A stretch of DNA of 64,000 bases from a virus. Location: IMG/VR virus record IMGVR_UViG_3300042292_000345, positions 13,326 to 77,325 of that record; one strand, given 5' to 3'. The position numbers and the translations under genes were made by a program. Shown in pieces: positions 1,528 to 64,000 of the stretch. Position 1 is the first letter of the stretch, and the number at the start of each line of letters is the position of its first letter. The notes beneath the pieces were generated by a model. That model had not been told where the DNA came from, did no database searches, and worked only from the letters and a program-made list of their open reading frames with translations.

Positions 1528-1540
1528 ATTGGAGACAAAT

Positions 1541-7500: not shown

Positions 7501-10500
7501 GCTTTTTAAACTTAGTAAACCAGAAAAAGTAAACTATGATGATTATTTGAATGGAATATTAATGGGTTCTGAAAATAATAATGTGCTCAAAGATGGGGGC
7601 ATTAAAGGTCGGATCCAAAAAGCAATGGAAACTTCAATAGAAAAAATGTCGACTGGTGGGGATTTTAGCCCACAATTGACAGCTAAGATAAATCAACTAT
7701 ATTCTTCTCTATTTGATACGCTTAATACATACTATGGTGCCATATATGAGAACAATAGTGATAAGTCCAAGACCACAGCCTCAGCGGCTGAGGGCTATAT
7801 TGTTAATATTCTTTCAGATATTGAAAGATTAAATGTATGGAAAGGTGCAGTAGACGAAGCAGCTTCTGCAGCTAATAAATATACAACTAGTATAGCCAAT
7901 ATTTCAACAAATTTAAGTAAGTATAAGATAGACTTTAAGACTGAAGATTTAAATGTTGATACAAGTCTTACTGATTACTTAGATAATACTTATAATTATC
8001 TACTAGAGATTGATAATCAATTAAGTAAAGCCTATGATAAGAATAATAGAATACGTCTAACTCAGATAAAAGACTCTGCTATTGAAGAAGCTAAAGCACG
8101 TGTAGACGCAGCTAAGAAAGTTCAAAAAGATTATCAATATCAATTATCTACATTCACAGATGTAGGTATTGAAATCCCTGATGTTGCTAAATTTATGAGT
8201 CCTGAAAAAGCTCAAGGTATTGTAGAAAACTTTAAACAATTAAAGCAGTTACAGGAAGATATCCAAAAACCTGCTGTAGAACCTGTAATGCCTGAGATTA
8301 ATCAACTCTGGTCTATGCGTAGTAAAGAAGAAACTGCAAGAGCATTTGAGGCATATGTTAGCCAATTACAAGACTATAATAGAATTGTATCAGCTAAAAT
8401 AATGGGTGAAGCTGGTTTAGATAACTTCCGTAATGCAATATCTAGACAAATATTTGAAGGTATTAAGGGCGATAAAGCAGGTTATGCTAAGTATATCTAT
8501 GGTATTGTAGAATCTATTGGCTCTCCTGTAATTGATATGGTAGATCAATTTGGTTTAGACACCATTGATGGTATAGCTAATCAAATAGCAGAGCTATCAA
8601 TAAAAGCAGAGATGTTTAAAAGATCTGGCGACTACTCAAAAGAAGCACCTTTGAGACAGCAGATAGAAGATTTAAAGATGTCTATAAAGACACTTGATAT
8701 TCAACCTTTACAATCTGTTATTGATTTGTTAGATCAAGGTATTACAGGTAGAGATCTTCTTTCAATTTCTGATAATGATCTTGCTAAGCTTGCAGCACTT
8801 GGAAAAGCTATTGCAAAATATAATAAAGATCTTTCAGAAGCTAGACGTACTAATTCACCTGTAGATACTAAGAGAATTCAAGGTCAGATTCAAGATACTA
8901 AGAAACAAGCTAAACAAATAGCTGATGTTTATCGCAGCGCTTTGCCTAGTTCATTCTCAAATATTTATGGTAGAATGGGACTAGAAGGAAAAGCAAGCAG
9001 TGTCACAGCTGGTCTATTCATGAAACTTGCTAATGCTTCTAAGAATATTGAAAATTTAGAATTAGATAGAGCCCTTAAAAGTGATACTTTATCTGATTGG
9101 AAAGATTTTACTGATCAAATTGAAAAAGCTAATATTGAACTTGAACGTACTAAGCTACTTGGTCCTTTTGTAGGAGAAGCCTTAACTTCTGCATTTAGTG
9201 ATGTCGGAGTTAGTGACTTTAATGAGATGGTGGCTTATGGCGCTGGGCAGCTTACTGAATTACTTGGTCTTGCTAGAAAGAAACAAAGTATTAATTTAGA
9301 TATTAAAGCAGGGGCTAGTGAAAGTGAAATTCAGAACTATATCAATAGTGTTAGACAACTTGCAGAAATTGCAGATGAAGTTGCTAAGAAACGTATTAAC
9401 ACTATTACAACTGGTACTGATATTACTCAAGCATTTTCAGATGCAGGTGCAAGTACTAATAAAGCTGCTTTAGCAAACTATCAGTATGGTGCTTCTCTAT
9501 TAGCACTTAGCAAAAAGTCTGCATTACTGAAATTAGATCAAGCTAAACCATTAACACTTCAAGCAGCTAAAGAAAATCTTAAAGCACTAGCAGATATTGA
9601 CAGACAGTTAGCAATTTATAAGAAAATTGTCATGAACACAAAAGAGAACTTTGATAGCTTTAAATCTATCTTTGATTTCTCTGTTGATGATACTTTATAT
9701 GCTAGACTATCTAATGGTATTCTTGGATTGATGGGTAATGTAGCTGCTAGAATTGATTTATTGATGAAGAATGCATCTGATAAAGATGGTCTTTCAGCAT
9801 CTACTAGGTCTCTATATGAAGCTCTTGCATTAGTTAAGAGAGATGCTAAAACATACTCTTCTTTACTAACTAGTGTGTACGAAGCTCAGCAATCTAGGTT
9901 TGATAGTAATAAGACTAAGTATGATAAGATTTCTACTGCATTTCCTAATTTAGGAATGGATAAGAATCTTTATGGTACTTTAGATAGAGCTGTCAGATCT
10001 GGATTTGAGAAAAGTGCTAACTTTAGTGATTTGTTTAGTAAGATATCAGATCTAGGCGCATTGCCAGTCAAACTAGCAGATGAGCTAGATAGATTAGGTA
10101 ATCTGTATGCTAGTGGTAAAAATGTAGACATCGATATGATTGCTGCTGCCGTAACTCAATATGGTGAAGGAAATCTAAAAGCAAGACTTGAAGCTATCAT
10201 GTCAAGTACTAAAGATCCTTTTACTAACTTGAAGACATCTACAGATGATCTAAAAGGTGCTATTGAATTACTTAGTGAAAATGTTGCTGCAAATACAGCT
10301 ACACTTAGAGGTGAAGCACCTAAAGCAAAAACTAGCATGAATATGTCTAGTAATGTAGAGAGTCTGTTAGCTGCTTCTACTGCCAAGTATGGTGTCCCAT
10401 TAGATCTTGCTAGAATTGTTACTCATATCGAATCAAGAGGTAAGAATAATCTTACTTCTGAAACGGGTAATAAAGGCTTAATGCAGATTAGTAATGACTT

Positions 10501-13411
10501 AGTTAAAAAGTATAATGTATCTAATGTATGGGATCCTGCTCAAAATATAGATGCAGGTGTCCAATACCTTAAAGAGTTACTTGGGAAGTTTGGTGGTGAT
10601 TCTAGAAAAGCTGCTTTAGGTTATTTTGAAGGAGAAGGAGGCGCTAGAAAAGCCTTAGCAAATCCTGCAGGTTATACTAAAGGTATGGATTACTTAAACA
10701 AGTATGATGCTAGATTATCTGGCAAGACTCCTATGAAGTTTCCTGATGCAACTATTACTATACCAACAGGTGCTATAATAGATGTTAGTGGTACCAGTAA
10801 TGTAACTGCCAATGGAGAGTCTGTAAATGCAGGCAGTGCTGCTACTAGAAATGTAAGTGCATTTGTAGAATCTAGAATAGCAACTGCAAATGCAAATAAG
10901 ATTGTTGTCAATAGTTGGAGACAAGCAATAGAAGGTATTAAAGGCACTAATCTAGGTATGTCATTGTCTAGCGCAATTCGTAAAGGTCTTTCTACTGTTG
11001 GTCAAGATACTATGAATGCATCTGTAGCTAACACTATATCTCCAAAAGATGTTCTTGTAGCTGATGAGTATAAGCAAACTATGACTGCTTTAAATGATCA
11101 GTTGAATACCGCTACTGATGAGATCACTAAAGCTAACCTGCAAGGTACTCTAAACAAAGTTAGTGCTGAGTTTGCATTGTTTAAAACAAGATTAGAAGAT
11201 CTTGCAACTGCTGCTATTAAAGCTGGTCAGGATTTTAGTAGTGCTGTTAAATCTACTCTAGGTGATGCTATCAAAGGATTGATGAAGGGAGAAACTTCAG
11301 ATGTGTCTACTCTTTTTAGTACTGCTCTTAAGAAACTAAGAGATGGGGTTATAGATGCTACTATTGATTCAATGACTAAAGGGATAATGAATAAATTACC
11401 ATTTAGTTTTGATAAGATTATGGCAAATGCTGGTGAAGCTATCTATAAAGTTCCAGGTGCTATTTGGGATTCTATGAGTGGTAAAGGCTTTGGAGGATTC
11501 ACAGATATCTGGGGAACTCTAACAGGTGGTAGTGCTACTGGTGGTACTCCTGAACAAGTGCAACTTCAAGCTGCTAAGATTCAACTTCAAGCTGCTCAAA
11601 TGCAACTTGCAGGTGGTGGGGGTGGAAGTGGTGCAGCAGCTAGTGCTGGTATTGGTAGTTGGCTTGCAAGTAATGCTGGCTGGCTAGCAGGTGGAGCAGG
11701 TGCCATAGGTCTTGGCTCATTGCTATACGGAGGTAAAGATACTAAAGGCTCATGGTCTGAAGGTATATCATCTCTTGGTAAATCATTCATGTCACCATTT
11801 GGTGGAGATACAACTAGTAGTGGAAATCCATTAAGTAGTATTAATCCTGTATCTGGAAAATCTGATTCTTGGAGTAGCGACTTCTTAGGTATTGGTAGTT
11901 TATTTGCTAAACAATCAGGTACTACAGATGCTGTAAAAGGAATCAAAGATAGCTTAATGCCTTCAGGAAAAGGATGGTGGGACAGCACTCCAGCAGTTGG
12001 TGAAATCTCTAAATCAGCTAATACATCTTGGCTTGATGATATATTTACTAAAATGAAGACAGGTCTATCAGATACTTTAGGCACTGATGGCTTCTTTGGC
12101 TCAATACTGAAAGGTATTGTAGCTGCTTGGGATTGGTTTACTGGTCTGTTTGGTAGTAATGAACCAACTAAAGCTGCCACTGGAGGTCGTATCAGTGGCC
12201 CAGGTACTGGTATATCTGATAGTATCCCTGCTATGTTATCTAATGGCGAATTTGTAGTCAATGCTAAAGCTGCTGGCAAGCATGGTAGACTATTAGAGTC
12301 TATCAACTCAGGCAATGTCTCTAAATTTGCTGAAGGCGGTTTTGTAGGTGGTAAAGGATTACCATTAGTTGGTGCTTTGATGGGCGTAGCAGGTCTATTC
12401 TTTGGTGGAAATAAAAGTACTCCTAAAGACCAAAGTCCTGAACAAGCATTACTTGCAGCTTCTGAAAATCTAAATTCTGCTGCTGATAAGCTATCTCGTG
12501 GTGGATTTGGCGGAGGTAATAATAGTATCTTTGCAACTGGTAATGGTCTTGGAAAAGGTATTGGCGGCTTTGCAGATTCTATGCTAGGTCTTGGCGGCTA
12601 TGGTAGTGCTGCTGGGGGAGTTCTTGATGCACTATTCGGTGTTAAAAAGAAAGAGAATGATATTTGTTCTTGCTTTACTGGCAAAGGTAGTCCAGCTACA
12701 AGCTTATTCCAAGATATATTTGGTTTAGGTGGTGATAAGAAGCCTTTAAGTGGTCTTACAGATAGCTTTGGTGTACTTCAAAGTGATGCTAATAATGGCT
12801 CATTTGGGGTAATGCAAAGTGATAAGAATGGCTTGATGGATAGTTTTACTGGTATGTTTAAAGACATGGATTTCGGAGGCATGTTTGATGTACTGAAAGA
12901 AGGCTTCATGGGTATATTTGGAGACTTAGGTACTTCAATTACAAGCTTACTAGGCGGAGGTGCTTCAGGCGGTGCTGGCGGAATTTTAGAAAGTCTTATG
13001 AGTTTCGGCAGTATGTTTGCATTTGCCAGTGGTGGTCATGTAAATGGACCAGGTACTAGTACTTCTGACAGTATTCCAGCAATGCTATCTAATGGTGAAT
13101 TTATCATTAATGCAAAAGCTACAGCAGCTACCAGACCACTACTAGAAGCTATTAACTCAGGTAAGACTCCTAAGTTTGCATTAGGTGGTAGTGTCGGAGA
13201 TGCATCAGGTAATCTAATGACACTTCCAAGTGCGAGATCAGGTGAGGTAATAAATACTTCACGAGTAAATAATAATAGTAATCAGAGTGTAATCAATATG
13301 AATATTACAGGTGATATTTCACGTCAGACACGTTCTGAAGTATTCAAAATGATTCCTACAATTGCTAATGGTGTTAACGTTCATAATAAAGAACAAAACT
13401 ATAGAGGTTAA
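1541..13411 (+). CDS. Tail tape measure protein with lytic transglycosylase (SLT) domain
   Basis: N-terminal TMP motif QLGQGLGSGALRGEEFNSVIEQ..LRRMANAGKLTS; SLT motifs IES / GLMQI / NIDAGVQYL near 10355-10720; C-terminal GPGT..SDSIPAMLSNGEF motif twice; GGAG RBS before ATG 1541. Confidence 0.92.
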   Translation: MSGIAIAVEAKVDKAQRDLQLLNHTVSNISTEVKKATSSFSLMSKSIVGLGGIALILPTIKSIDATFTNIENKIKTITGATERFNTAFSGVSSIARDTRSTLADTTDSFFRISSAISETSLDMDKVLVATRAIQSGAILAGGNLDGYRAAVMQLGQGLGSGALRGEEFNSVIEQALPIAKAIGDSLGVSVGTLRRMANAGKLTSDLVFNALIMQAGALQKKVSSMDITIEQSMQSLKETLKYVFNSFDKAVNMSGFLSRGIVALSGKLSLLADSAFNMGTDISSVLNSLFASKDLKRIADIATTMLYPFYFAAKQFGKQFMLFLNARGIISFMNKIFVETTSAAMMSITKLGTKLYTLGVILRAIDQQGFLQGKLAVFDAFGYAVKSFFVMFHFYVQRVVNPINQDIYAIGNSIDQTFNVIPGKVIKLFANFTAHISHFIQGFIGLYDTSIGRLFKNLAEAYEDFVADFNNSVFGFSPLSKKLEKYKEILARVVLKSIPEVLIRAAGAIKAALIGFIKPFKSVEERISASSRVLPKVSLSFEEMATGVNKAGKILVTGAENVKDFFMMLVSTDFSKLSSSFSFDGLKKNISNFVKYISNTSLLSSVKSFVKDLLPSDILSKSASVFSNTLQKIIVKIRDVLGSLFSMDKIKGQLTTFLPVIQSGLSSLLSTLTDAASIVYSKVSSFIDSFKQLEMVSAVTDKVEKVFNFIKKKLEGTSLDVDFSAIKDKVKSLFKDSISSDITSSMASSSFKFSDFKHIAVKALDSIVDGFHNIVAVSKKLLFTKPKEALDYILEKLSIVKQKIGEFATSIGIPSIDLSVNLEPIKKAIGVAKEFIGSMVADLSDVFGTNFTNLNLDTSSFSSFKASILKAFDEVSSIFNKNLAVLFAKPMTFHVSAIALGEMFPENKVTEFLSKQLRAVAVRGWKDFIIAWSNTANAGDLSERVGEFASTTIVNAIKNYTYALPQLAGALMSIGSSIFRGFVEGLPIVGKVSEVVFNLAEMLGVAGPLGVIGAFLFGSSILTTLAEIGLLPATLTKVAGAMHTVKSFFMGSYGTRTATGAFTSVLGTMSHEMFNSARRSFSIGAALLGADMLGTFDTMFKDSPIAHSVARGLAVGFMLFGHDVPKLIAEHVLKPIATGLLMGGPAPFSNFLVNYLRGGDQGPLSARVAKTIFEKVDQIRDMFVSRMEGIVTGKGIFESLIYGRTGAITQPQQSSRIFVKYEAMMRSLQGHAGSFAATIRAQVPVLATLMSKWTAFDTALAASGGSGGRLLYALFGKGGLILRIAPTILLITGLLAAFSTFASEAEQIPDYIKGKEGFAAVPRMEVPQPEIVVNKPTIASQVKEWMSAAGDEFKATFPAFAKIMKDLSLLPYKIFNFTSLRSLFAEIGNLFTDIYDASIPYIVALGSIVGKVLLDQFSMIMKLVQSFGSLINAYFTGIVNLGQLVGDTLATYTDVLVAVIGVGLVVFDYFIQRSKNATLALSQFLKVFAKSRFLPIALAIGGVGVVFEKYFIEGVDVAIDRTTVFGQVLSALLTVATLVFKVFKILKPILLALPFIEPLLAKLGPLREGFRKLGETFKTSFTGFRWTDIFTSPLETIKKLGSTAVEGLKGLYTTITTATVSAASSAGARAGGAFSRAIAAALSTNGFLIVAALTGVLVAAAKDIDGRKFSDISGISSFINFFFDLAAGAAVIAIGSFLLLGKSTWDFRNKVLAATAALRAQQGAMFVNEATLAAHAAMMWKTYEAPLLAMPAMIASRMTSLFVFAGSIAAGAFAGAFVTNALMHQSEYTEIGIMIGTYLGFMIGRSLIKYLGTIMVEAFTAAMIGSIAALATAVGYVGMGLAGWFNWSDDFLTQLSSIYDKLKDIAGIVSEKPDTKTGLSKRALDFAKYKGIEIAYNIGNIKESILSENTKKSYKESISKLNESLLKGSENELTGVEVDLHEIQNNVKASSRQVSRATNESMISISKDYDKFATLLTRIGKINPADELFKLSKPEKVNYDDYLNGILMGSENNNVLKDGGIKGRIQKAMETSIEKMSTGGDFSPQLTAKINQLYSSLFDTLNTYYGAIYENNSDKSKTTASAAEGYIVNILSDIERLNVWKGAVDEAASAANKYTTSIANISTNLSKYKIDFKTEDLNVDTSLTDYLDNTYNYLLEIDNQLSKAYDKNNRIRLTQIKDSAIEEAKARVDAAKKVQKDYQYQLSTFTDVGIEIPDVAKFMSPEKAQGIVENFKQLKQLQEDIQKPAVEPVMPEINQLWSMRSKEETARAFEAYVSQLQDYNRIVSAKIMGEAGLDNFRNAISRQIFEGIKGDKAGYAKYIYGIVESIGSPVIDMVDQFGLDTIDGIANQIAELSIKAEMFKRSGDYSKEAPLRQQIEDLKMSIKTLDIQPLQSVIDLLDQGITGRDLLSISDNDLAKLAALGKAIAKYNKDLSEARRTNSPVDTKRIQGQIQDTKKQAKQIADVYRSALPSSFSNIYGRMGLEGKASSVTAGLFMKLANASKNIENLELDRALKSDTLSDWKDFTDQIEKANIELERTKLLGPFVGEALTSAFSDVGVSDFNEMVAYGAGQLTELLGLARKKQSINLDIKAGASESEIQNYINSVRQLAEIADEVAKKRINTITTGTDITQAFSDAGASTNKAALANYQYGASLLALSKKSALLKLDQAKPLTLQAAKENLKALADIDRQLAIYKKIVMNTKENFDSFKSIFDFSVDDTLYARLSNGILGLMGNVAARIDLLMKNASDKDGLSASTRSLYEALALVKRDAKTYSSLLTSVYEAQQSRFDSNKTKYDKISTAFPNLGMDKNLYGTLDRAVRSGFEKSANFSDLFSKISDLGALPVKLADELDRLGNLYASGKNVDIDMIAAAVTQYGEGNLKARLEAIMSSTKDPFTNLKTSTDDLKGAIELLSENVAANTATLRGEAPKAKTSMNMSSNVESLLAASTAKYGVPLDLARIVTHIESRGKNNLTSETGNKGLMQISNDLVKKYNVSNVWDPAQNIDAGVQYLKELLGKFGGDSRKAALGYFEGEGGARKALANPAGYTKGMDYLNKYDARLSGKTPMKFPDATITIPTGAIIDVSGTSNVTANGESVNAGSAATRNVSAFVESRIATANANKIVVNSWRQAIEGIKGTNLGMSLSSAIRKGLSTVGQDTMNASVANTISPKDVLVADEYKQTMTALNDQLNTATDEITKANLQGTLNKVSAEFALFKTRLEDLATAAIKAGQDFSSAVKSTLGDAIKGLMKGETSDVSTLFSTALKKLRDGVIDATIDSMTKGIMNKLPFSFDKIMANAGEAIYKVPGAIWDSMSGKGFGGFTDIWGTLTGGSATGGTPEQVQLQAAKIQLQAAQMQLAGGGGGSGAAASAGIGSWLASNAGWLAGGAGAIGLGSLLYGGKDTKGSWSEGISSLGKSFMSPFGGDTTSSGNPLSSINPVSGKSDSWSSDFLGIGSLFAKQSGTTDAVKGIKDSLMPSGKGWWDSTPAVGEISKSANTSWLDDIFTKMKTGLSDTLGTDGFFGSILKGIVAAWDWFTGLFGSNEPTKAATGGRISGPGTGISDSIPAMLSNGEFVVNAKAAGKHGRLLESINSGNVSKFAEGGFVGGKGLPLVGALMGVAGLFFGGNKSTPKDQSPEQALLAASENLNSAADKLSRGGFGGGNNSIFATGNGLGKGIGGFADSMLGLGGYGSAAGGVLDALFGVKKKENDICSCFTGKGSPATSLFQDIFGLGGDKKPLSGLTDSFGVLQSDANNGSFGVMQSDKNGLMDSFTGMFKDMDFGGMFDVLKEGFMGIFGDLGTSITSLLGGGASGGAGGILESLMSFGSMFAFASGGHVNGPGTSTSDSIPAMLSNGEFIINAKATAATRPLLEAINSGKTPKFALGGSVGDASGNLMTLPSARSGEVINTSRVNNNSNQSVINMNITGDISRQTRSEVFKMIPTIANGVNVHNKEQNYRG

Positions 13412-30990: not shown

Positions 30991-31152
30991 GAGGTCAATG
31001 CAAAAACGTCGCCTGTGGCACGCGAGTTCGGGGCATGGCAACCGTATCGCCCGCGAAAATTCGGGGAGCGTACCCCCGCTAGCCGTCGCAGAAACGGGTG
31101 GCGTGTGGCAACTACTGCAAAACCGCAGGAAGGTTAACCCGTCAGGTCTCCC
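30991..31152 (+). repeat. GC-rich element A (1 of 3 related copies)
   Basis: Starts GAGGTCAATGCAAAAACGTCGCCTGTGGCACG, matching 49809 and 54840. Confidence 0.65.
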
Positions 31153-31167
31153 AGTATAAGGAAAATT

Positions 31168-31425
31168 ATGTTAATCAATGAATTAAAACTAGCTAATAAA
31201 TCTGAAAGATGTTCTTTAGTAATATCTTTATTAGATAAGAACAATACCCCTTGGAGATCCTCTAACAGAGGAATCCATATCACAGTAGAACGTGAACATT
31301 ATAAATTAGATATATGGCCTACTACTCTCAAATTTAGGATAACAGAATATCCGTTAGGTGAAGGAAATACTTTCAGTGGTGCTGAAGAATTCTTAGAAAA
31401 TCTGGAAAAGTATTTGCGCAAATAA
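31168..31425 (+). CDS. Hypothetical protein
   Basis: 85-aa ORF, AAGGA RBS, DIWPTT.KF motif. Confidence 0.65.
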   Translation: MLINELKLANKSERCSLVISLLDKNNTPWRSSNRGIHITVEREHYKLDIWPTTLKFRITEYPLGEGNTFSGAEEFLENLEKYLRK

Positions 31426-31454
31426 TGGTATCTTATATGAATACCATAAGGTAT
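31416..31454 (+). promoter_or_regulatory. Candidate phage RNAP promoter, copy 1
   Basis: GCGCAAATAATGGTATCTTATATGAA-TACCATAAGGTAT; conserved at 32552 and 46386; each copy lies just upstream of an RBS. Confidence 0.65.
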
Positions 31455-32551: not shown

Positions 32552-32590
32552 ACGCAAAAACAAGTATCTTATATGAATACCATAAGGTAT
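32552..32590 (+). promoter_or_regulatory. Candidate phage RNAP promoter, copy 2
   Basis: ACGCAAAAACAAGTATCTTATATGAA-TACCATAAGGTAT; 27 bp identical to copy 1. Confidence 0.65.
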
Positions 32591-34124: not shown

Positions 34125-34161
34125 GACCTCCCTTCGGGGAGGTCTCCTTATTTTTTTTTTT
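34125..34161 (+). terminator. cUUCGg hairpin plus T11 tract
   Basis: GACCTCCC-TTCG-GGGAGGTC, T11 at 34151-34161. Confidence 0.75.
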
Positions 34162-34322
34162 AGGAATTATATGAAATACTGTATGACACTAACTGCATCA
34201 CTCATGATACTAGGGCCAACACACCAAGCGTTATTTATGGGTACTTTAATTTATCTTTATTGCGTAGGTAAGAAATATGTTGGTTAGATTAATATTATTA
34301 CTATTGATATCGGAGGCAATTA

Positions 34323-36389
34323 ATGGAAGTAGCAACGATAGAAACGCTGTATCTGTATACAAGACCAAAAAGAAGCGGTGATCCAATTCTATTTGCAGAG
34401 CTTATTACAGCTATGGGTAGGGCACTTTCAGATTCTAGATGTTCGACTGAAAGAGCCAGAATTGGTGCTAACTTTATTTACAATCTAGAAGAGCAGTGTA
34501 TTCTAGAACTTCAACTGAATCAAGATAATCAATATATAATTAAGATTATCAATGATGCATGGATCTTAGATATAATGAGGAAGTGTGTAAAGATCCATCA
34601 CAGTACTTTTCCTTCTCTACTACCATATGATGACTGGGATAAATTTTATCATAGTACAGGTGCTAAACTAATAAAAAGTAAAGCACCAGAATTGAAAAAG
34701 ATAAGCCCTAATACTCATCCTATTGTATTTGATAGTATTAACAGGTCTCAAAGTGTTGGTTGGAATATCAATAAAAGAATTCTACCAATAGCTGAGTGGT
34801 GTCTGAAAAGACAAGAAGCGGCTTTTAGTGATATCTGGAATCAAGTAAAGAAAGAAGCTAAAGCAACAAAGTCTAGAGAGTCTAAGACAATCATTCAGAT
34901 TGCTAAAGAGTTTATTAATTCAACTTTTTATCATCTGTATTATCTTGACTTCCGTGGCAGGTGTTATCCAACTACTGCATACCTTCACGAGCAAGGTTCA
35001 GATCTAGCAAAGGGTTTATTACTCAGAGCTGATAAGAAAAGAATCGGTGAAGGTGGTTATAGATGGTTATGTATCAGTATAGCATCTAACTGGGCAGGTG
35101 CAAGTGGTCGTCCAGATGGTGCAAAGACTGATAAGATTCCTATGTTAGAAAGGTATCAATGGACTCAAGCAAATCTAGATGTGTTGCTTAGCTATGCCAG
35201 AGATCCTCAGAAGAACAAAGGATGGATGGATGCTGATAAGTGTTGGCAGTTTCTAGCAGCTTGTATAGAGCTAAAGAAAATACATGATACTGTATTATAT
35301 CATGGAGCAAATATTTATGATTATGAAAGTCATCTAGAATGTTTTATAGATGGCTCAACTAATGGCTCACAGCATCTGGCAGCACTTACTAGAGATGAAG
35401 TAACAGCACCATATGTTAACTTAGTACCTAGTAGACTGCCTGGTGATTTATATACGTATGTTGCAAACTCTATATGGAAATTTGTCAGTGTTACGTTAGC
35501 TGATCTAGATCCCAATCTAGTAGCTGCAGCAGAAGTATTTGTAGATACTATAATTGAAATGAAAGCACAAGTTAGAAACACTGAACCTAGAAGTGAACTA
35601 AGAAAAGCGCATTCAGAGAAATTACAGTATTATAGGAATCAATATCACTATCTAGAAGAGACAGCAGCTTTTGTCTTCTGGAATAGAGTTAAAGATTTAA
35701 AAGAACGAAGAAAGATCGTTAAACGTGGTGTAATGACTTTACCATATGGCGGGACTTCTTACGGTCTTGGAGAGCAGGTTCTAGAAGACTCTAAAAAGCA
35801 TGGAATAGATCTCTTAAAAGATCTTGATATGAAATGGGGCACTTTCATGGGTAGACTTATCTTTATGAACTGTAAAGATTCATTAAAGAATCCTATGAAA
35901 CTTCTAGATATATTTAGTAAAGCAGGAGTGAAGGCTGAAAAAAGAGATGAGTATCTTTCTTGGACAGTACCTGTAACTAAGTTTCCTGTAATCCAGCATT
36001 ACGATGAAGGTACAATAAAGAAAGTGTTAATTATGTATGGGGGTAGAGAATTAAAGATATCTATCTATCACTCTGAGTTTCCTACTAAAGCTAAAAGGAA
36101 GCAAGGGCAAGGAGCAGCACCTAATATTGTTCATTCACTTGATGCAGCACATCTAATGCTTACTAAAGTAACTTGTCCATTTACAGTAACAACTATTCAC
36201 GATTCTTATGGATGTTTGTTAGCTGATATGGATGATTTATTTAGAATAGTTAGAGAGACATTTGTAGATCTTTATAGAGTAAATCCATTAGATTATTTGA
36301 TGGAAGAAATTCAAGGAGATATGAGTGGTTTAGAAATCGGTGCGCTAGATATCAATAGTGTACTAAAATCAGAATATTGCTTTAGTTAA
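34323..36389 (+). CDS. Single-subunit (T7-family) DNA-directed RNA polymerase, 688 aa
   Basis: DFRGRCYP, motif A DGSTNGSQH, motif B RKIVKRGVMTLPYG, PNIVHSLDAAH, motif C IHDSY, C-terminal SEYCFS. Confidence 0.96.
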   Translation: MEVATIETLYLYTRPKRSGDPILFAELITAMGRALSDSRCSTERARIGANFIYNLEEQCILELQLNQDNQYIIKIINDAWILDIMRKCVKIHHSTFPSLLPYDDWDKFYHSTGAKLIKSKAPELKKISPNTHPIVFDSINRSQSVGWNINKRILPIAEWCLKRQEAAFSDIWNQVKKEAKATKSRESKTIIQIAKEFINSTFYHLYYLDFRGRCYPTTAYLHEQGSDLAKGLLLRADKKRIGEGGYRWLCISIASNWAGASGRPDGAKTDKIPMLERYQWTQANLDVLLSYARDPQKNKGWMDADKCWQFLAACIELKKIHDTVLYHGANIYDYESHLECFIDGSTNGSQHLAALTRDEVTAPYVNLVPSRLPGDLYTYVANSIWKFVSVTLADLDPNLVAAAEVFVDTIIEMKAQVRNTEPRSELRKAHSEKLQYYRNQYHYLEETAAFVFWNRVKDLKERRKIVKRGVMTLPYGGTSYGLGEQVLEDSKKHGIDLLKDLDMKWGTFMGRLIFMNCKDSLKNPMKLLDIFSKAGVKAEKRDEYLSWTVPVTKFPVIQHYDEGTIKKVLIMYGGRELKISIYHSEFPTKAKRKQGQGAAPNIVHSLDAAHLMLTKVTCPFTVTTIHDSYGCLLADMDDLFRIVRETFVDLYRVNPLDYLMEEIQGDMSGLEIGALDINSVLKSEYCFS

Positions 36390-36398
36390 GGAGAGCAA

Positions 36399-36788
36399 AT
36401 GAAAGAATTTAAAGATATTAAAGATTTAGAAAATTTACCACACGTAGACAATCTTATTGACGTTATTACAGATAGTCTTGATATTGATACAGCTTTAGAT
36501 TTTATTGCTGGATTTTCTTTCATGTCTATTTTTGGGGGTAATCTATTCCTGATTGAGACTAAAGAGGACTTGAAAAGTGTCTGTCCTGATTTAGAATCAG
36601 ATGAAGGTTATATAACGCCTTTTGATACATACGACTATGTTACTGACCTACCTACTAGTGATAAAAAGCTGTACCATTTGCTCACTATTATTAATAACAA
36701 CTCTGGTGGACCGACTTACATTGTCCCTTCAGAGCTTGTAGACCAAGATGTAGAATTTCTTATTGCAGCAGTATTAGCGCAAAATTGA
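36399..36788 (+). CDS. Hypothetical acidic protein
   Basis: 129-aa ORF, AAGGAG RBS, NNSGGPTYIVP motif. Confidence 0.7.
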   Translation: MKEFKDIKDLENLPHVDNLIDVITDSLDIDTALDFIAGFSFMSIFGGNLFLIETKEDLKSVCPDLESDEGYITPFDTYDYVTDLPTSDKKLYHLLTIINNNSGGPTYIVPSELVDQDVEFLIAAVLAQN

Positions 36789-37278: not shown

Positions 37279-37827
37279 ATGGCATTACCAGTACCTGAAT
37301 TGAAAACAAAAGTTGTAATCCGTGACGTAGTATTGAAATACGCCCATCTAGGTCGTCCAAGCGGAAAGTTCACTCCTGAGAATCCTACATACGAGGTTAA
37401 TATTACTACGTATGATATGGATGTAAAGAAATTGCTACAAGCAATGGGTGCAAAAGTAGAGACCGATGTTGAAGAAGAAAGCGGAAAAGCCTGCCATTCT
37501 ACTACACTTCGGAGTAAATCTTTGAATGTAAAAACAGGTGAGAAGATGATACCACCAACAGTAGTAGGTATGAATAAGCTTCCAATAGATCCTAATATTA
37601 TTGGTAATGGTTCTATTGGTGATGTTGTTATTTCTTCTTACGCATACACTTTCAAAGAAAAGAAAGGTACTGCAGTAAATCTACATGCAGTTAGAGTTAA
37701 AGTTCTTCACAAGTATGAAAGAGCAGAGTCTAATAGCCTTGACTTATTTGAAGATGATGATTCAGAAACTGTAGTAATTGAATCTGAAGAAGCATCTGCA
37801 GATGATTTTGATGATATGCCTTACTAG
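37279..37827 (+). CDS. Single-stranded DNA-binding protein (T7 gp2.5-like)
   Basis: YAHL..P, IGNGS.GDV, L.AV.V motifs; acidic tail ending in an aromatic residue (DDFDDMPY). Confidence 0.85.
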   Translation: MALPVPELKTKVVIRDVVLKYAHLGRPSGKFTPENPTYEVNITTYDMDVKKLLQAMGAKVETDVEEESGKACHSTTLRSKSLNVKTGEKMIPPTVVGMNKLPIDPNIIGNGSIGDVVISSYAYTFKEKKGTAVNLHAVRVKVLHKYERAESNSLDLFEDDDSETVVIESEEASADDFDDMPY

Positions 37828-40541: not shown

Positions 40542-41329
40542 GTCTATATGCACTAGTAGATGGTGATGTAATTGTTCATTTAAGCTGTCCTAGTAGAAGA
40601 GCTTTCCATGATATTGATCCAGATCTTCCAGATGATGAAGTTGAGTACTCTTTGGAAGATGATGAAAAGTATTTATCTGCTATCTTCTCAATCTACAAGA
40701 ATAAGATAAATAATATTGTTCAGACTCTTTTTGTAGATAAAGTTCTAGTAGCTGTAAAATCTGAAAGTAATTTTAGATATAATGTCTCATCAGCCTATAA
40801 GAGCCACCGTATTAATAAACCAGGTGGTGAAATGGTTGCTGCATTACGTAGACGAGTACTGGAAGAAAATCTAGCAGTATGCCTTCCAGACTACGAGGCA
40901 GACGATCAACTTAGAATCTGGGCTGAAACACTTAGGGAAATGGGAGACGATTTCATAGTTGTAACTATTGATAAAGATCTCAAAATGATTGGAGGAAACT
41001 TCTATAATCCTAAGAGTTGTATCTCATTTGAAGTCCTACCTAGAGAAGCAGCTTTTAACTATTATCAGCAAATTCTAATGGGTGATGCTGTTGATAACAT
41101 TAAGGGTATTCCTAAAATCGGTCCTAAAAAGTCTGAGAAAATACTAGATCATTGTAGAACTCATAAAGACTTTAAAGAGGCAGTAGACACTCAGTACATT
41201 ATGGCATTTGGAGATAATTGGATGCAAGAACTAGAAGTAACAGGTAAGCTTATTCATTTAAGTAGATTTATTGGAGACCAATTCAACCTAGAGGAGTGGT
41301 TTGATGACCGTTCAACAGCCGTTATTTAA
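40538..41329 (+). CDS. 5'-3' exonuclease / RNase H (T7 gp6-like)
   Basis: LVDGD, NFR....YK..R, EADD, DKDL, GDAVDNIKGIPKIGPKK. Confidence 0.9.
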   Translation: MSLYALVDGDVIVHLSCPSRRAFHDIDPDLPDDEVEYSLEDDEKYLSAIFSIYKNKINNIVQTLFVDKVLVAVKSESNFRYNVSSAYKSHRINKPGGEMVAALRRRVLEENLAVCLPDYEADDQLRIWAETLREMGDDFIVVTIDKDLKMIGGNFYNPKSCISFEVLPREAAFNYYQQILMGDAVDNIKGIPKIGPKKSEKILDHCRTHKDFKEAVDTQYIMAFGDNWMQELEVTGKLIHLSRFIGDQFNLEEWFDDRSTAVI

Positions 41330-41756
41330 TGGTCACTGGAGTTTTGAAGAACCTATGGGCGGTGCTGGCTATGTTGGTTTTATTTATATTATCAAGATAT
41401 GGCCAGAAGGTAAGTTATATCTAGGTAAGAAACATTACCAAGTATCTAGAGGTAAATCGAAAGGGGATGAATCTAATTGGAGATTCTATTGTTCTAGTAG
41501 TGATGCTATGAAGAAAATCGTATCTATCTACGGAATGCAGGATTTAGAATTCATTTGCCTTGAGCAATACAAGACTAAGTCAGGCCTAAGCTATGCTGAA
41601 ACTAAGTCTTTAGTATTAGTAGACGCGCCTTTAACTGATATGTGGCTTAATAAGAGAATTGAAGAAGTCGCATGGAATGTAAAAGAGCCAATGTCTGATC
41701 GACACTACAACAAACTGATGGAGATGAATTTGTGGCGACAAAAGGCACATTCGTAA
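41301..41756 (+). CDS. GIY-YIG family endonuclease (T4 endonuclease II-like)
   Basis: GFIYII....LYLGKK..ESNWRFYCSSS..YAE. Confidence 0.75.
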   Translation: MMTVQQPLFNGHWSFEEPMGGAGYVGFIYIIKIWPEGKLYLGKKHYQVSRGKSKGDESNWRFYCSSSDAMKKIVSIYGMQDLEFICLEQYKTKSGLSYAETKSLVLVDAPLTDMWLNKRIEEVAWNVKEPMSDRHYNKLMEMNLWRQKAHS

Positions 41757-46385: not shown

Positions 46386-46411
46386 GCGCAAAAGGGGGTA
46401 TCTTATATGAA
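46386..46411 (+). promoter_or_regulatory. Candidate phage RNAP promoter, copy 3
   Basis: GCGCAAAAGGGGGTATCTTATATGAA, same spacing as copies 1 and 2. Confidence 0.65.
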
Positions 46412-49541: not shown

Positions 49542-49846
49542 GACTAGAAAATGGAAAATATTATATCACGCGAGATAAATCTACAATCTTTCAAGTCACA
49601 GCTATTAGCTCTGATTCGTATGACTTTGCCAGTACTATAGGGTATGATGGAGTTCCTTTGCTGCTATTTAGATCAACTGGCAGGATCTCTCAGTGGGAGG
49701 AAGATGCACTGGACTTAGTAGCTGAAGTAAGCTTTGTTGAACTGCCAGATACACCAACACCTTTGTTTAATATTGATAGCGAACAGTTTGATCTTTTTAC
49801 TTACGATTGGGATCAATACAAAAACGCGCCCTCTGCAACGCAATAA
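49538..49846 (+). CDS. Paralog-family protein
   Basis: LENGKYYITRD..LDLVAEV; 3' end runs into element B. Confidence 0.7.
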   Translation: MRLENGKYYITRDKSTIFQVTAISSDSYDFASTIGYDGVPLLLFRSTGRISQWEEDALDLVAEVSFVELPDTPTPLFNIDSEQFDLFTYDWDQYKNAPSATQ

Positions 49847-49945
49847 TTTCGGGCAGATTTCGGAGGGCAGGCACACGGACGTGCCACAGCGCGTGAATGC
49901 GTCTAAAAATTCTGCAGGGCAATTGCATGTCGCATGTCACCCCAA
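49809..49945 (+). repeat. GC-rich element B
   Basis: Starts GGGATCAATACAAAAACGCGCCCTCTGCAACGC; also carries CGTGCCACAG, the reverse complement of CTGTGGCACG in element A. Confidence 0.55.
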
Positions 49946-50004
49946 GTTTGTAAAAGAACATCTTACTTATTATTTACTTTTATTTATTTTATTGGAGAAT
50001 TACA

Positions 50005-51716: not shown

Positions 51717-52255
51717 TGACTAGACACATACACGCAGATTTAATGGCAGAATATGCCAAAGATGCCCAGATCTCAAACACTCCTTGGGAATATTGGGAAA
51801 ATATGAGATCAATTGATAAGGATTGGGTTAGTCTGGCAGATCATCCTTATTGGGATGAGGCGACTAAATACAGAAAAAAGCCAGTACAATGGAGCCCTCC
51901 AGAGGGTTCATTTTATATCAGAACTGATTATAATGGTATATTTTCTGAGAATACTAAAAAGACTCGTCGTAATTTCGGATTGGAACGAAATGACAGAACT
52001 ACAGCACTTAAAGCACTTGCAGAAATTAGAACATTCTGTAGACTGCTAGCGCTAAGAGATGAGTTATGCCCTAACTTTACACCTAGATGGGGTGATGATG
52101 AAAGTAATAATTATGTAATATACTATGATACGCAGCTGACTGAATTTACATATGTCTGTTATACTGTCTATAAAGGCTATTCACCTTACTTTGATGAAGA
52201 AGGTGCTATAAAAGCCTGTGAGTTATTAAATTCAATGCAAGTAGTTTTATATTAA
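51716..52255 (+). CDS. Two-domain hypothetical protein, paralog 1 of triplet
   Basis: HIHADLMAEYAKDAQ..PWEYWE..YRKKP plus RLLALRDELCP..PYF..ACELLNS. Confidence 0.8.
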   Translation: MTRHIHADLMAEYAKDAQISNTPWEYWENMRSIDKDWVSLADHPYWDEATKYRKKPVQWSPPEGSFYIRTDYNGIFSENTKKTRRNFGLERNDRTTALKALAEIRTFCRLLALRDELCPNFTPRWGDDESNNYVIYYDTQLTEFTYVCYTVYKGYSPYFDEEGAIKACELLNSMQVVLY

Positions 52256-52277: not shown

Positions 52278-52763
52278 ATGGCAGCACACATACATGCAGA
52301 ATTAATGCTACAATATGCAAAAGATGCTCAGCTCACAAATGAACCTTGGACTCTCTGGGAGTATAGATTAGCTAAACATGATTTTACTGATGCAATAACC
52401 AGTGAGTGGATGAGCTTGCAAGACAGCCCTACTTGGCGAATTGAAATGGAATACCGCCATAAGCCTAAATGGGAACCGAAAGAAGGTAATTGGAGGAATT
52501 TCTTTAATATTTCTAGAGATAGCGAAGAAGAGGTTAAGATCGCTATAAGAGAAATAAATCGTTTCACTCGTCTTCTAGCACTGGCGCATGAGCTAAATAA
52601 TGATAATAATTGTCCTAATTATTTCTTACATTATGACTGCTATGATGATAAATGGGAGCCACATATGATTGTAAATAAACAGTATATTGTAACTCCTTTA
52701 TTTACTAGAGATGCTGCTTTTACAGCATGTAAGATGTTAAATTCTAATGAGGCAAAACTATGA
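52278..52763 (+). CDS. Two-domain hypothetical protein, paralog 2
   Basis: HIHAELMLQYAKDAQ..YRHKP plus RFTRLLALAHEL..ACKMLNS. Confidence 0.8.
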   Translation: MAAHIHAELMLQYAKDAQLTNEPWTLWEYRLAKHDFTDAITSEWMSLQDSPTWRIEMEYRHKPKWEPKEGNWRNFFNISRDSEEEVKIAIREINRFTRLLALAHELNNDNNCPNYFLHYDCYDDKWEPHMIVNKQYIVTPLFTRDAAFTACKMLNSNEAKL

Positions 52764-53011
52764 ACGACTCACAAAAAGAAATGCGCAGATTTACTAGATT
52801 ACTTGCCTTAAGGGATGAATTGTGTCCTGACTTTGTAGTTGATTGGTCTTTGGAGAATAAGGGTAATTTTGTATTGCGCTTTAGTTTTCTTCAAAATGTA
52901 TGGCAGCCTGATCCTTACGGAACTTATGATGGAAAAATTGGACCTTACTTTAGCAAAGAAGCGGCTGAAATAGCTTGTAAGATGTTAAACTCAGGTGAGG
53001 TAGAACTATGA
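52760..53011 (+). CDS. Paralog 3 (C-terminal domain only)
   Basis: RFTRLLALRDELCP..PYF..ACKMLNSGEVEL. Confidence 0.8.
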   Translation: MNDSQKEMRRFTRLLALRDELCPDFVVDWSLENKGNFVLRFSFLQNVWQPDPYGTYDGKIGPYFSKEAAEIACKMLNSGEVEL

Positions 53012-53376
53012 ACTGTAAATTTACTATGTTTAAACCTAAAGGCGCATTCGAGAAAGAAGCACTTTATCCACGTATTGCTGCAGGGTATAGAGGTGCATTA
53101 CAGCGTGAAAGAAAACTCTCTAGCACTTTGCAAGTAATTGTCTTTGATCCAATAACAGGCAAACAACGCCATATTGGGGATTTACCCGCGACTTATGGAA
53201 ATGTCTTCCCTTATGAATACACGGTAGCTACATTCGAAATTATAAAGCGTAGTGGTAATAATATAACATTAGTAGTCACCAGTGTTGTAGCAAATCCCTA
53301 TTTAGCAGTCGGTGAAATTGAGAGACTCGTTGATAGTATACCGCATGTTTTCGAGAATGGGAGATTATATACATAA
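53008..53376 (+). CDS. Hypothetical protein
   Basis: 122 aa, ATGA coupling to previous gene. Confidence 0.65.
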   Translation: MNCKFTMFKPKGAFEKEALYPRIAAGYRGALQRERKLSSTLQVIVFDPITGKQRHIGDLPATYGNVFPYEYTVATFEIIKRSGNNITLVVTSVVANPYLAVGEIERLVDSIPHVFENGRLYT

Positions 53377-53768: not shown

Positions 53769-54662
53769 ATGTATTTCTTAAATATACCTGATAAAGGCAT
53801 CATAGATGCTAGATTTACTAACAAGACAGAAGTAATTAACATTGCAAGATCACTGAAAGGTACTGTAACAAATGCTAAAGGAGAGATAGTATATCCTTTC
53901 AGTATACCTGAATGTAAAACTCCTAGATGGGTAATCAATCCTAGAATTAAGAGAGAACCTACAACAATCATATCTACTATAAGAGGTATGAATGAACCTG
54001 CCAATTATAAACAATCTCCTAGAGCACAGGTAATCTATGAAGATGGTACTAAACAAGATCTTGCATCACAGATATGGAATATGGAAGTAGGCAATATCCC
54101 ATTGTCCTATTATGTAAGACACAAGAACTATGATGTTAATGATAATAGACTTAGTAATCTAGAATTAGCAATGGTAGGTTGTGTGTATCCAATAGAGACT
54201 ATCAATGAGTTTAGACCTATGAGGCTTATGAGACTCAAGAAGTTTAATGAAGTATGTGTATATCATCATTCAGGTATTGTACACGTTATTAAAGGTAATA
54301 TAGATCTTAGAGGCTCTAATGATCCTTTCTATCCTAGACCAGTAATTAAAGAACGTGAGAAGTTAAACGTGTTCTATGATCTAGCCTCTATGTGTTGGAT
54401 GCAAGCATTTGAGAGAGATGTACCTTCCTTCTTCTTTATAGGATTCAGGGATCTTAATCCAAATAATCTTTCATTAGATAACTTGGAGTTAACTCCCAGA
54501 CCTTATTCAGAAGAGCAGTTTAGAGAAGAATACACTATCCATGAAGGTCATGTAGTATTTAAGAAATGGATGAATAAAGTAACATTCCCATTAAAGCTAC
54601 CATCATGTATTTCACTTAATAAAACAAAAGCTATCAGTATCTTGGAGAATAGTAATGACTAG
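53769..54662 (+). CDS. HNH endonuclease-like protein with two HNH-type repeats
   Basis: VRHKNYDVNDNRLSNLEL and IGFRDLNPNNLSLDNLEL. Confidence 0.6.
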   Translation: MYFLNIPDKGIIDARFTNKTEVINIARSLKGTVTNAKGEIVYPFSIPECKTPRWVINPRIKREPTTIISTIRGMNEPANYKQSPRAQVIYEDGTKQDLASQIWNMEVGNIPLSYYVRHKNYDVNDNRLSNLELAMVGCVYPIETINEFRPMRLMRLKKFNEVCVYHHSGIVHVIKGNIDLRGSNDPFYPRPVIKEREKLNVFYDLASMCWMQAFERDVPSFFFIGFRDLNPNNLSLDNLELTPRPYSEEQFREEYTIHEGHVVFKKWMNKVTFPLKLPSCISLNKTKAISILENSND

Positions 54663-54924
54663 AGAAACATTTGTATTTAATGCCTTACAAGCCTTCCTTA
54701 TTAGTCATGAAGATGACAAAGAACTTAGTGAAGAGCTAACAAACATCTTAGAGAATATAGACATTGCTATAACAGTATCTGAAGAGCAGTGTTTAATAAG
54801 TGCTGTAAGCTACGGTCCTTTATTCGATAGAAAGAGCTTGAGGTCAATCCAAATTCGTCGCCTGCGACACGACTCCCCAAAACCCTCACTGGAGGCTCCC
54901 CTCCCCCGCGAACGCCCGCTGTAG
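54655..54924 (+). CDS. Hypothetical protein (C-terminus encoded by element C)
   Basis: GGAG RBS; last ~27 codons lie in the GC-rich element. Confidence 0.5.
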   Translation: MTRETFVFNALQAFLISHEDDKELSEELTNILENIDIAITVSEEQCLISAVSYGPLFDRKSLRSIQIRRLRHDSPKPSLEAPLPRERPL

Positions 54925-54985
54925 CCCTGCTAGCGTCTTCAGAACTGGCACACTCGCAGTCACTTTCCGCTAACTGCAAGTACGT
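54840..54985 (+). repeat. GC-rich element C
   Basis: Starts GAGGTCAATCCAAATTCGTCGCCTGCGACACG, 27/32 identical to element A. Confidence 0.65.
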
Positions 54986-55129
54986 TAAGGATTTGAATGC
55001 GATACGATGAAAGTTGTATTTGCTTTTTGTCATATATCCTCAAAATATTGCCCTTTAGTTATGCTGAAGGGTGATCTTTTCCTTAGTGACGATTAAGGAA
55101 AATGGGATTTTATGATCTGAGGACGCTTC

Positions 55130-55510
55130 GCAAATCTCTCTTAAAGTTTTCTTATAGAATTCTATTAATATCTTTTAGGTTATTATAGGTTCTTTAAGAT
55201 TTCTTTAAGGTCTATTAGATCTTTTAGATATAAATTATTTAAATTCTTAATATTAACTTATTAATTATTTATTTAATTTATATCTAAAAGGTCTAATATT
55301 TTTTATTTTTTTTTTTCTTAATTATTAAATAATATTACTTATTGTATTAATTTAGTACTATAAGTACTATTATTTTGCGTGTGTGTGGATAATGGTGTGT
55401 CGATAAATTTTTTCATATCTTCTCCTTAAAGATTTAAAATAACTTACTCCAAAAAGTTGTTTATGCCTTAAAGATCTCTTTTTAGACTTCTTTAAGGCCT
55501 TTTTTCGTAA
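55130..55510. other. AT-rich non-coding region with 25-bp inverted repeat and CTTAAAG heptamers (candidate origin or genome-end/packaging region)
   Basis: Arms 55213-55237 and 55274-55298 (24/25); six CTTAAAG/CTTTAAG copies; lies upstream of terminase. Confidence 0.5.
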
Positions 55511-55529
55511 CTAAAATAAAGGATTTAAA

Positions 55530-63440: not shown

Positions 63441-64000
63441 CAGTCGCATCAGATTATACTAGTGTAACTATTGGAACTTATACAGGGCTGACTAGCATTT
63501 CACAAATTGGTCAAGCAACTTCAATAGATGTCCCTATTATTGCTATCCCTGCAAGTATACCTAGCCTATCTATTAGTAGACCTGCATATACTGATATTGC
63601 AACTACTTATGTAGGTATAAATAAAGTCAATACTTATATGGGTACTTTCAGCACAGTGGATAGCCCAGTTGTAAGTATTCCTGCTAGTATCCCTAGCCTA
63701 TCTATTAGTAGACCTATTTATACTAATATAACAGATACTTATGTAGGTATAAATAGAATTAATACTTATGCAGGTACTTTCGGCACAGTGGATAGTCCAG
63801 CTATAAGTATCCCTGCAAGTATACCTAGTCTATCTATTAGTAGACCTATTTATACTACTATAACAGATACTTATGTAGGTATAAATAGAATTAATACTTA
63901 TGCAGGTACTTTCGGCACAGTGGATAGTCCAGCTATAAGTATCCCTGCAAGTATACCTAGTCTATCTATTAGTAGACCTATTTATACTACTATAACAGAT
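63437..64000 (+). CDS. Putative virion protein with 44-aa tandem repeats (3'-truncated, not in ORF track)
   Basis: ATG overlaps previous stop; frame open to window end. Confidence 0.75.
   Translation, partial: MTVASDYTSVTIGTYTGLTSISQIGQATSIDVPIIAIPASIPSLSISRPAYTDIATTYVGINKVNTYMGTFSTVDSPVVSIPASIPSLSISRPIYTNITDTYVGINRINTYAGTFGTVDSPAISIPASIPSLSISRPIYTTITDTYVGINRINTYAGTFGTVDSPAISIPASIPSLSISRPIYTTITD
63545..64000 (+). repeat. 132-bp in-frame tandem repeat, at least 3.4 copies
   Basis: Units start at 63545, 63677, 63809, 63941; unit IPASIPSLSISRPIYTxITDTYVGINRINTYAGTFGTVDSPAIS. Confidence 0.92.

Follow-up and report, generated by a model that had tools for sequence, protein, structure and literature searches.

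A shortened single-subunit RNA polymerase (RNAP) of the T7 family is encoded at positions 34323..36389 of the phage DNA analyzed here, a stretch of 64,000 nucleotides (nt) called the window, which corresponds to positions 13326-77325 of a 77,325-bp IMG/VR virus record (IMGVR_UViG_3300042292_000345). The enzyme comprises 688 amino acids (aa) and is referred to as the free polymerase, since a second T7-family polymerase in the same genome is fused to a MuF minor-head domain. Judged from the genes and repeated motifs of this phage and its relatives, the free enzyme is probably an active, promoter-specific polymerase that acts second in a relay of two polymerases within a large group of long-tailed phages.

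The free polymerase and its reduced domains

By its sequence, the gene is an intact T7-family single-subunit RNAP gene with every catalytic motif. It starts with ATG, and the sequence GGAGG is found at 34312-34316, seven bases 5' of this codon. The product matches the Pfam family RNA_pol (PF00940; expectation value (E) 2.3e-72, 244.7 bits against a cut-off of 22) and PHROG 414 (E 1.9e-118). T7 RNAP chains match it at E 2e-48 and the yeast and human mitochondrial enzymes at 1e-40 to 3e-45; gp16 of phage N4 RNAPII does so at only E 0.44. The initial annotation had proposed structure prediction as a check, and an AlphaFold2 model was built on a 67-sequence alignment (mean predicted local distance difference test score 94.4). 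It matches T7 RNAP structures with Z scores of 36-44 over 513-609 aligned residues, and model residues 1-688 superpose on residues 114-883 of T7 RNAP in the promoter complex 1cez. N4 gp16 aligns to residues 243-688 with a Z of 20.8, and its sequence likeness is marginal. The features of the gene and its upstream terminator are as follows, in window coordinates, with invariance judged in the 67-sequence alignment.

34125..34161, + strand: intrinsic terminator, GACCTCCC-TTCG-GGGAGGTC followed by T11, read directly from the sequence
34323..36389, + strand: free single-subunit RNA polymerase (P0001), 688 aa, from Pfam, T7 RNAP matches and the AlphaFold2 model
34323..34715, + strand: reduced N-terminal domain, aa 1-131, from hhalign, model secondary structure and 1cez aligned from 114
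34494..34550, + strand: predicted beta-hairpin, aa 58-76, putative counterpart of the T7 intercalating hairpin (225-245), from model strands E61-65 and E71-75 and hhalign
34761..34949, + strand: shortened thumb, W147 to D209
34947..34961, + strand: D209-F-R-G-R213 motif (T7 D421-R425), R211 and R213 invariant
35349..35351, + strand: motif A catalytic aspartate D343 (T7 D537), invariant, from T7 alignment
35709..35750, + strand: motif B residues R463, K467 and Y475-G476 (T7 R627, K631 and Y639), invariant, from T7 alignment
36000..36089, + strand: specificity hairpin, aa 560-589 (T7 739-769), from model strands E561-572 and E575-589 and T7 alignment
36198..36203, + strand: motif C H626-D627 (T7 H811-D812), invariant

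Motif B (R-x3-K-x7-YG), the DxRGR motif, and H604 and D607, the equivalents of T7 H784 and D787, are thus all present. The initial annotation had also considered that a sequencing frameshift might hide a longer N-terminus. This explanation was ruled out: a separate 54-aa open reading frame (ORF) and the intrinsic terminator precede the gene, residues 1-38 of the relatives find no match in any frame within 1.3 kb 5' of it, and contigs from three other lake samples cover the polymerase start without an insertion or deletion, so that the N-terminus is short in independent lake assemblies. The sole insertion or deletion among strains is a TTT in the T-run of the terminator, whose length varies by 3 nt. 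Of the 26 strain substitutions in the polymerase ORF, 23 fall at third codon positions, which indicates purifying selection on the reading frame.

Alignment with T7 RNAP bears out the domain boundaries that had been read from the letters alone. W147 corresponds to T7 W328, and 62 residues separate it from D209, against 93 in T7 (W328 to D421). The fingers region before motif B is longer, with 88 residues from D375 to R463 versus ~58 in T7, and the specificity loop is of normal length by the T7 standard, as Y560-S589 falls one residue short of its aligned counterpart, T7 Y739-I769. The claimed absence of ~180 N-terminal residues was likewise recovered by profile-profile alignment, in which T7 residues 1-105 and ~144-202 have no counterpart. 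With hhalign, residue 1 of the enzyme falls at T7 ~106. Its N-terminal domain consists of three helices, one beta-hairpin, one helix and a linker to the thumb, equivalent to T7 ~106-143 and 203-312; the segment carrying the AT-rich recognition loop (93-101) and subdomain H (~144-202) are missing. Since the element with which T7 RNAP contacts the upstream AT-rich part of its promoter is absent, promoter recognition must differ from that of T7, as had been anticipated. The beta-hairpin at aa 58-76 is predicted from the model to correspond to the intercalating hairpin (T7 230-245); its length falls 4-5 residues below that seen in T7 and close relatives (20 versus 24 residues).

Comparison with relatives places these losses in a wider context. 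At least 520 proteins match the enzyme at E <= 0.001, the best 120 of which are ~50% identical and mostly 738-785 aa long, and at least 558 IMG/VR contigs encode relatives of the free polymerase. The related loci came from an alignment query; a single-protein query returned none. The nearest cultured phages are the roseophages DSS3_VP1 and DSS3_PM1 (Naomviridae), at 35% identity, and megablast found no close DNA relative of the phage among cultured phages. Typical relatives (739-760 aa) begin at T7 ~73 and retain the helix before the AT-rich recognition loop, the loop itself being shortened and not basic. This helix, the first in the promoter-binding domain, is missing from the 688-aa enzyme, which is more reduced than any other of the 65 compared. 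From these alignments, a short N-terminus is a trait of the whole clade, with further loss in this phage. The specificity hairpin differs as well: 62 of 64 relatives have 12-13 residues more in it, and the short form is shared among the 64 only by locus L077 and, among cultured phages, by DSS3_VP1. A claim that the enzyme is the smallest known was rejected on account of apparently complete metagenomic relatives of 631-690 aa and the 673-aa N4 RNAPII. Short polymerases in cultured Autographiviridae were also considered and discarded, as the RHph_I38 and Scott enzymes measure 826 and 862 aa.

Two polymerases and two classes of motif

The second polymerase of the phage is encoded outside the window, in an ORF that sits between a portal-like gene and head genes.

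genome 4216-8940 (L004), 4.4 kb before the window start: MuF-polymerase fusion ORF, 1574 aa, from Pfam and motifs

Pfam assigns Phage_Mu_F to residues 147-248 and RNA_pol to residues 978-1098 (E 1e-9, above threshold), and the motifs DHRARIY, QDASSSGAQI, R-x3-K-x7-YG, HSND and IHD are present. By these signatures the ORF is a MuF minor-head domain joined to a complete, very divergent T7-family polymerase, and the phage, going by its gene content, carries two T7-family polymerases, as N4 does. DSS3_VP1 encodes a homolog of the fusion, annotated as a minor head protein, and further homologs occur in all five complete relatives examined (G001-G005). Identity to the fused polymerases of the latter relatives amounts to 63-72%, versus ~51% for the free enzyme. 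A free short polymerase and a MuF-fused polymerase thus coexist in single genomes of this phage, DSS3_VP1 and G001-G005, and the pairing appears to extend to hundreds of uncultured phages. A literature search found no paper on a two-polymerase relay in long-tailed phages. As a separate observation, the free polymerase genes of L073, L078, L079, L080, L084, L086 and L087 and the fused genes of G001 and G002 are interrupted or match piecewise; they carry ~700-850-nt insertions or match in several pieces within one long frame, which suggests introns or inteins.

Two classes of promoter-like motif recur in this phage group. Class I reads GCGCAAA-N5-GTATCTTATATGAA in this genome and GCG[G/C]AAA-N4-5-GTATCTTATATGA[A/T], nearly invariant, across the group. 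A scan of the genome with a position weight matrix (PWM) located three copies and no further site above 12.

31416..31441, + strand: class I copy 1, PWM score 40.0
32552..32577, + strand: class I copy 2, from the PWM scan
46386..46411, + strand: class I copy 3, from the PWM scan

Of 80 related loci, 59-67 contain class I in nearly identical form. It occurs 2-3 times in each complete relative, for the most part within ~4 kb upstream of the free polymerase gene; one copy lies some 8-10 kb off in this phage and one relative. DSS3_VP1 contains three copies of a clear class I relative, GTGAGAAAACTAAGGCATCTATAATGA, at record positions 35809, 36256 and 67793. The three copies in this genome show no common RNA fold; only copy 3 folds well, overlapping a terminator-like hairpin.

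Class II has the consensus gAnCCCGTTAAATTAACCCt, with the short form CCCGTTAAATTAACCC, and is present in 5-8 dispersed copies per complete relative, always on the coding strand. A comparable set was found in DSS3_VP1, where 13 dispersed copies of ATAGGGTGCGTTAAAGAGG, with the CGTTAAA core of class II, extend from site 2242 to 59196, with none immediately 5' of the polymerase gene. In the present genome, a class II PWM scan gave no hit above 6 bits, versus a median of 31 for true sites, and inspection of CGTTAAA, TTAACCC and similar words near gene starts revealed nothing convincing. The loss coincides with the hairpin change: class II occurs in 57 of the 62 loci with a long specificity hairpin and in neither of the two with a short one (this phage and L077). 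Three GC-rich elements of ~160 nt stand out in this AT-rich genome.

30991..31152, + strand: GC-rich element A, from shared 5' and 3' blocks
49809-49970: second GC-rich element, from shared 5' and 3' blocks
54840-55000: third GC-rich element, from shared 5' and 3' blocks

Two blocks are common to them, GGTCAATNCAAAAACG on the 5' side and a GTTAA-containing one on the 3' side, and they have no Rfam match. The element at 30991, immediately 5' of the first class I copy, occupies a position at which relatives carry a class II site. On this likeness, the GC-rich elements are weak candidates for class II-type promoters or leaders of this phage; neither a class II-like motif nor a GC-element motif was found in L077.

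The arrangement of genes and motifs suggests how a relay could operate. The MuF-fused polymerase, which we infer to be packaged in the capsid, would be ejected with the DNA and would transcribe from the two or three near-invariant class I promoters, mostly situated just upstream of the early gene block that holds the free polymerase gene. The free enzyme would next transcribe middle and late genes from promoters of its own. A few clustered class I sites together with many dispersed class II sites match the layout expected if an early enzyme is injected and a free one acts later, and the better conservation of the fused enzyme mirrors that of the motifs, class I being unchanged and class II changed. 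Motif layout, the joint loss of class II and the long hairpin, and the pattern of conservation therefore favor class I as the likely target of the fused polymerase and class II-type promoters as that of the free one. In this phage, where the class II sequence of the relatives has been lost, the promoter specificity of the free enzyme has probably shifted. Here the enzyme has been trimmed further than in the relatives: the promoter-binding domain is without its first helix and what the relatives retain of the AT-rich loop, and both hairpins are shorter. Recognition would depend on the specificity and intercalating hairpins alone, possibly aided by a partner protein.

The class I sequence itself allows a different assignment of readers. 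The free enzyme could treat class I as a promoter of the T7 kind, starting transcription at the G of TATATG (+1), and amplify its own gene; the fused polymerase would in that case have other target sites, or act in DNA ejection or priming instead of early transcription. SP6-type promoters contain CTATAGAAG, which the class I end CTTATATGAA resembles; moreover, two class I copies lie upstream of the polymerase gene, and the genome has just three strong repeated promoter-like sites and no class II. However, in T7-like phages promoters change along with the specificity loop, whereas class I remains constant among phages whose free polymerases share only 35-52% identity and differ in the length of the specificity hairpin (30 or 42 residues). 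The second, dispersed motif of the relatives also has the layout expected for a middle and late phage polymerase, and self-amplification from class I is therefore considered unlikely.

Class I could also be read by the host. It contains a -10-like hexamer (TATAAT in DSS3_VP1, TATATG or TATGAA here), and host sigma-factor promoters would let the host polymerase express the free enzyme, as in T7, leaving the fused polymerase without a role in early transcription. Yet the two positions needed to complete the TTG of a -35 element are freely variable (TT, AC, CT and AT all occur), the -10-like hexamer follows at a distance of 14-16 nt, and at least 13 contiguous bases are invariant, far beyond what sigma-70 needs. 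Furthermore, class I occurs both in a roseobacter phage and in lake phages of low GC content, which must infect different hosts. Taken together, these features make host recognition of class I very improbable.

Several points weigh against the proposed relay. Packaging of the fused polymerase is assumed solely from its MuF domain, and no RNA run was found among the sequencing runs containing the phage. Class I ends in TATATGA, like the TATA and +1G of T7-class promoters, and could be read by the free enzyme. Its bases -11/-10 (GT, CC or GC, the first two of the 14-mer) show no link to residues of the specificity hairpin, a result that neither assigns nor excludes a reader. The short-hairpin group consists of two members only, L077 being a 17-kb fragment. 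Finally, no convincing dispersed promoter for the free enzyme was found in this genome, only the three GC-rich elements weakly resembling class II.

Candidate partners and genomic setting

The free polymerase gene is followed by an acidic ORF, a gp2.5-like single-stranded DNA-binding protein (SSB), a DUF3310 protein and a T7-like replication module.

36399..36788, + strand: acidic protein, 129 aa, isoelectric point 4.05, from synteny in at least 27 loci
37279..37827, + strand: gp2.5-like SSB, from phrog_112 (E 9.8e-16) and Pfam Enc34_ssDNA-bd

The initial annotation had suggested that the enzyme may need an accessory factor, naming the acidic ORF, the SSB and an AP2-like ORF. In at least 27 related loci the acidic ORF immediately follows the polymerase gene, and this conserved position makes it a reasonable candidate partner; for none of the three was a link to transcription found. 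The acidic protein has the conserved motifs FGGxxxLxExxEDL and NNxGGPxYxIP. It belongs to no Pfam or PHROG family and has only Atlas features below 0.8; its best PDB fold match has a Z of 3.7, and no BFVD match was obtained at E <= 0.001. The ORF directly after the DSS3_VP1 polymerase gave no significant match to a profile of the acidic family. The SSB is conserved in 74 loci and in DSS3_VP1. As to the AP2-like ORF, the sole HNH-type candidate is a homing-endonuclease-like HNH_3 gene (53769-54662), 17 kb away.

Two further readings hinge on such partners. In the first, the enzyme would behave like N4 RNAPII, with no recognition of double-stranded promoters of its own, and would be recruited by the acidic protein or the gp2.5-like SSB. 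N4 RNAPII, an enzyme dependent on gp1 and gp2, is described as truncated in these two regions, the N-terminal domain and the thumb (PMC4496689), and the present enzyme likewise co-occurs with a virion-type polymerase and has the acidic gene conserved directly downstream. However, it retains both the specificity hairpin and the intercalating hairpin, and by sequence it is far nearer to T7 RNAP than to N4 gp16. The long, sequence-specific class II motifs of the relatives suggest direct recognition, and the ORF downstream of the DSS3_VP1 polymerase does not match the acidic family. Comparison of the neighboring ORFs with PHROG and Pfam detected no homolog of N4 gp1 or gp2/Drc, although these families are poorly conserved and their absence says little. 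Such dependence is accordingly regarded as quite improbable.

In the second, the enzyme would be a naturally minimized promoter-specific polymerase in which the downstream acidic protein replaces the part that reads the upstream promoter, acting as a specificity or melting subunit. This proposal is highly doubtful. If it were true, the acidic protein would represent a sigma-like factor for a phage single-subunit polymerase, and the changed specificity hairpin would define a new orthogonal promoter.

With respect to the genome as a whole, all genes are on one strand, and the free polymerase gene is placed after the tail and lysis genes rather than at the early end. The phage derives from lake water, and many lake-water metagenome runs contain the stretch, with at least 10 covering half of its sampled words or more. 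The phage had been called long-tailed, and a tape measure gene of unusual size agrees with this description.

1529-13411: tape measure protein, 3960 aa, with TMP_3 and SLT domains

A protein of this length implies a very long tail. An Rfam scan of the whole 64-kb window found no family at the gathering score. Several unrelated features of the genome may be recorded. A 132-nt tandem repeat lies inside an ORF spanning the ends of the record (window 63544-64000 and genome 1-325), and a 127-nt "direct terminal repeat" falls within this array, so that it may not be genuinely terminal. At window 54925-55529, 605 bp of AT-rich, non-coding sequence with the short repeats TCTTTAAGG and CTTTTAGAT could be an origin or control region. 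The HNH_3 endonuclease mentioned above is probably a homing element, as is a GIY-YIG SegE-like endonuclease at window 41301-41756, between the exonuclease and primase/helicase genes. Three neighboring small ORFs share a conserved C-terminal segment (window 52183-52234, 52694-52765 and 52942-53013), which marks them as paralogs.

Significance and comparison with known polymerases

RNA synthesis and orthogonal gene expression routinely make use of T7-type polymerases. A compact natural enzyme, 22% smaller than that of T7 and with both hairpins, shows which parts of the N-terminal domain are dispensable. The contrast between long-hairpin relatives with class II and a short-hairpin phage without it offers a natural comparison that could map determinants of promoter specificity. 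The group is widespread, as the number of contigs given above indicates, and DSS3_VP1, which is cultured and has both motif classes, could serve as an experimental model.

Compared with T7 RNAP (gene 1; 1cez, 1qln, 1msw), the enzyme has the same fold over the palm, fingers, thumb and part of the N-terminal domain. The catalytic motifs are shared as well, the specificity hairpin is almost as long, and the intercalating hairpin has a counterpart. Overall, the enzyme has 195 residues fewer, with a thumb shorter by 31 residues and a fingers insert ~30 residues longer. Unlike T7, this phage is a siphovirus with a second polymerase.

Mitochondrial RNA polymerases are T7-family enzymes that rely on separate initiation factors (PMC4496689). 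The yeast Rpo41 and human POLRMT match the model with Z scores of 33-40 over ~600 residues, as strongly as T7 RNAP, yet they carry large N-terminal extensions, and no relative of Mtf1 or TFB2M was found in this phage. Xanthomonas phage Xp10 has one phage polymerase and uses the host enzyme for its early genes. Its polymerase is of the T7 type and belongs to a long-tailed phage (PMC4496689).

Among cultured phages, the closest parallel is provided by DSS3_VP1 and DSS3_PM1, whose polymerase (QGH74624.1, 732 aa) is 35% identical over 87% of the query. DSS3_VP1 shares with this phage the short N-terminus, the short specificity hairpin, the MuF-fused second polymerase and the gene order polymerase, SSB, DUF3310, DNA polymerase. 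It differs in retaining the first N-terminal helix and in carrying both motif classes, whereas this phage lacks a dispersed class II-type motif. The host of DSS3_VP1 is a marine roseobacter, while this phage comes from lake water.

The relay of polymerases has so far been characterized only in the short-tailed N4 group, and the present phages would extend it to long-tailed ones. N4 RNAPII (gp15 and gp16) totals 673 aa and has a truncated N-terminal domain and thumb (PMC4496689). The 688-aa enzyme shares these truncations with N4 RNAPII (6dt7) and is of similar size, but it is one uninterrupted polypeptide rather than a gp15/gp16 heterodimer. Both phages pair the minimal enzyme with a polymerase thought to travel in the virion, which is a 1574-aa MuF fusion here and the 3500-aa gp50 in N4. 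The promoters differ as well, with long, specific motifs in the relatives of this phage and a short AT-rich one in N4.

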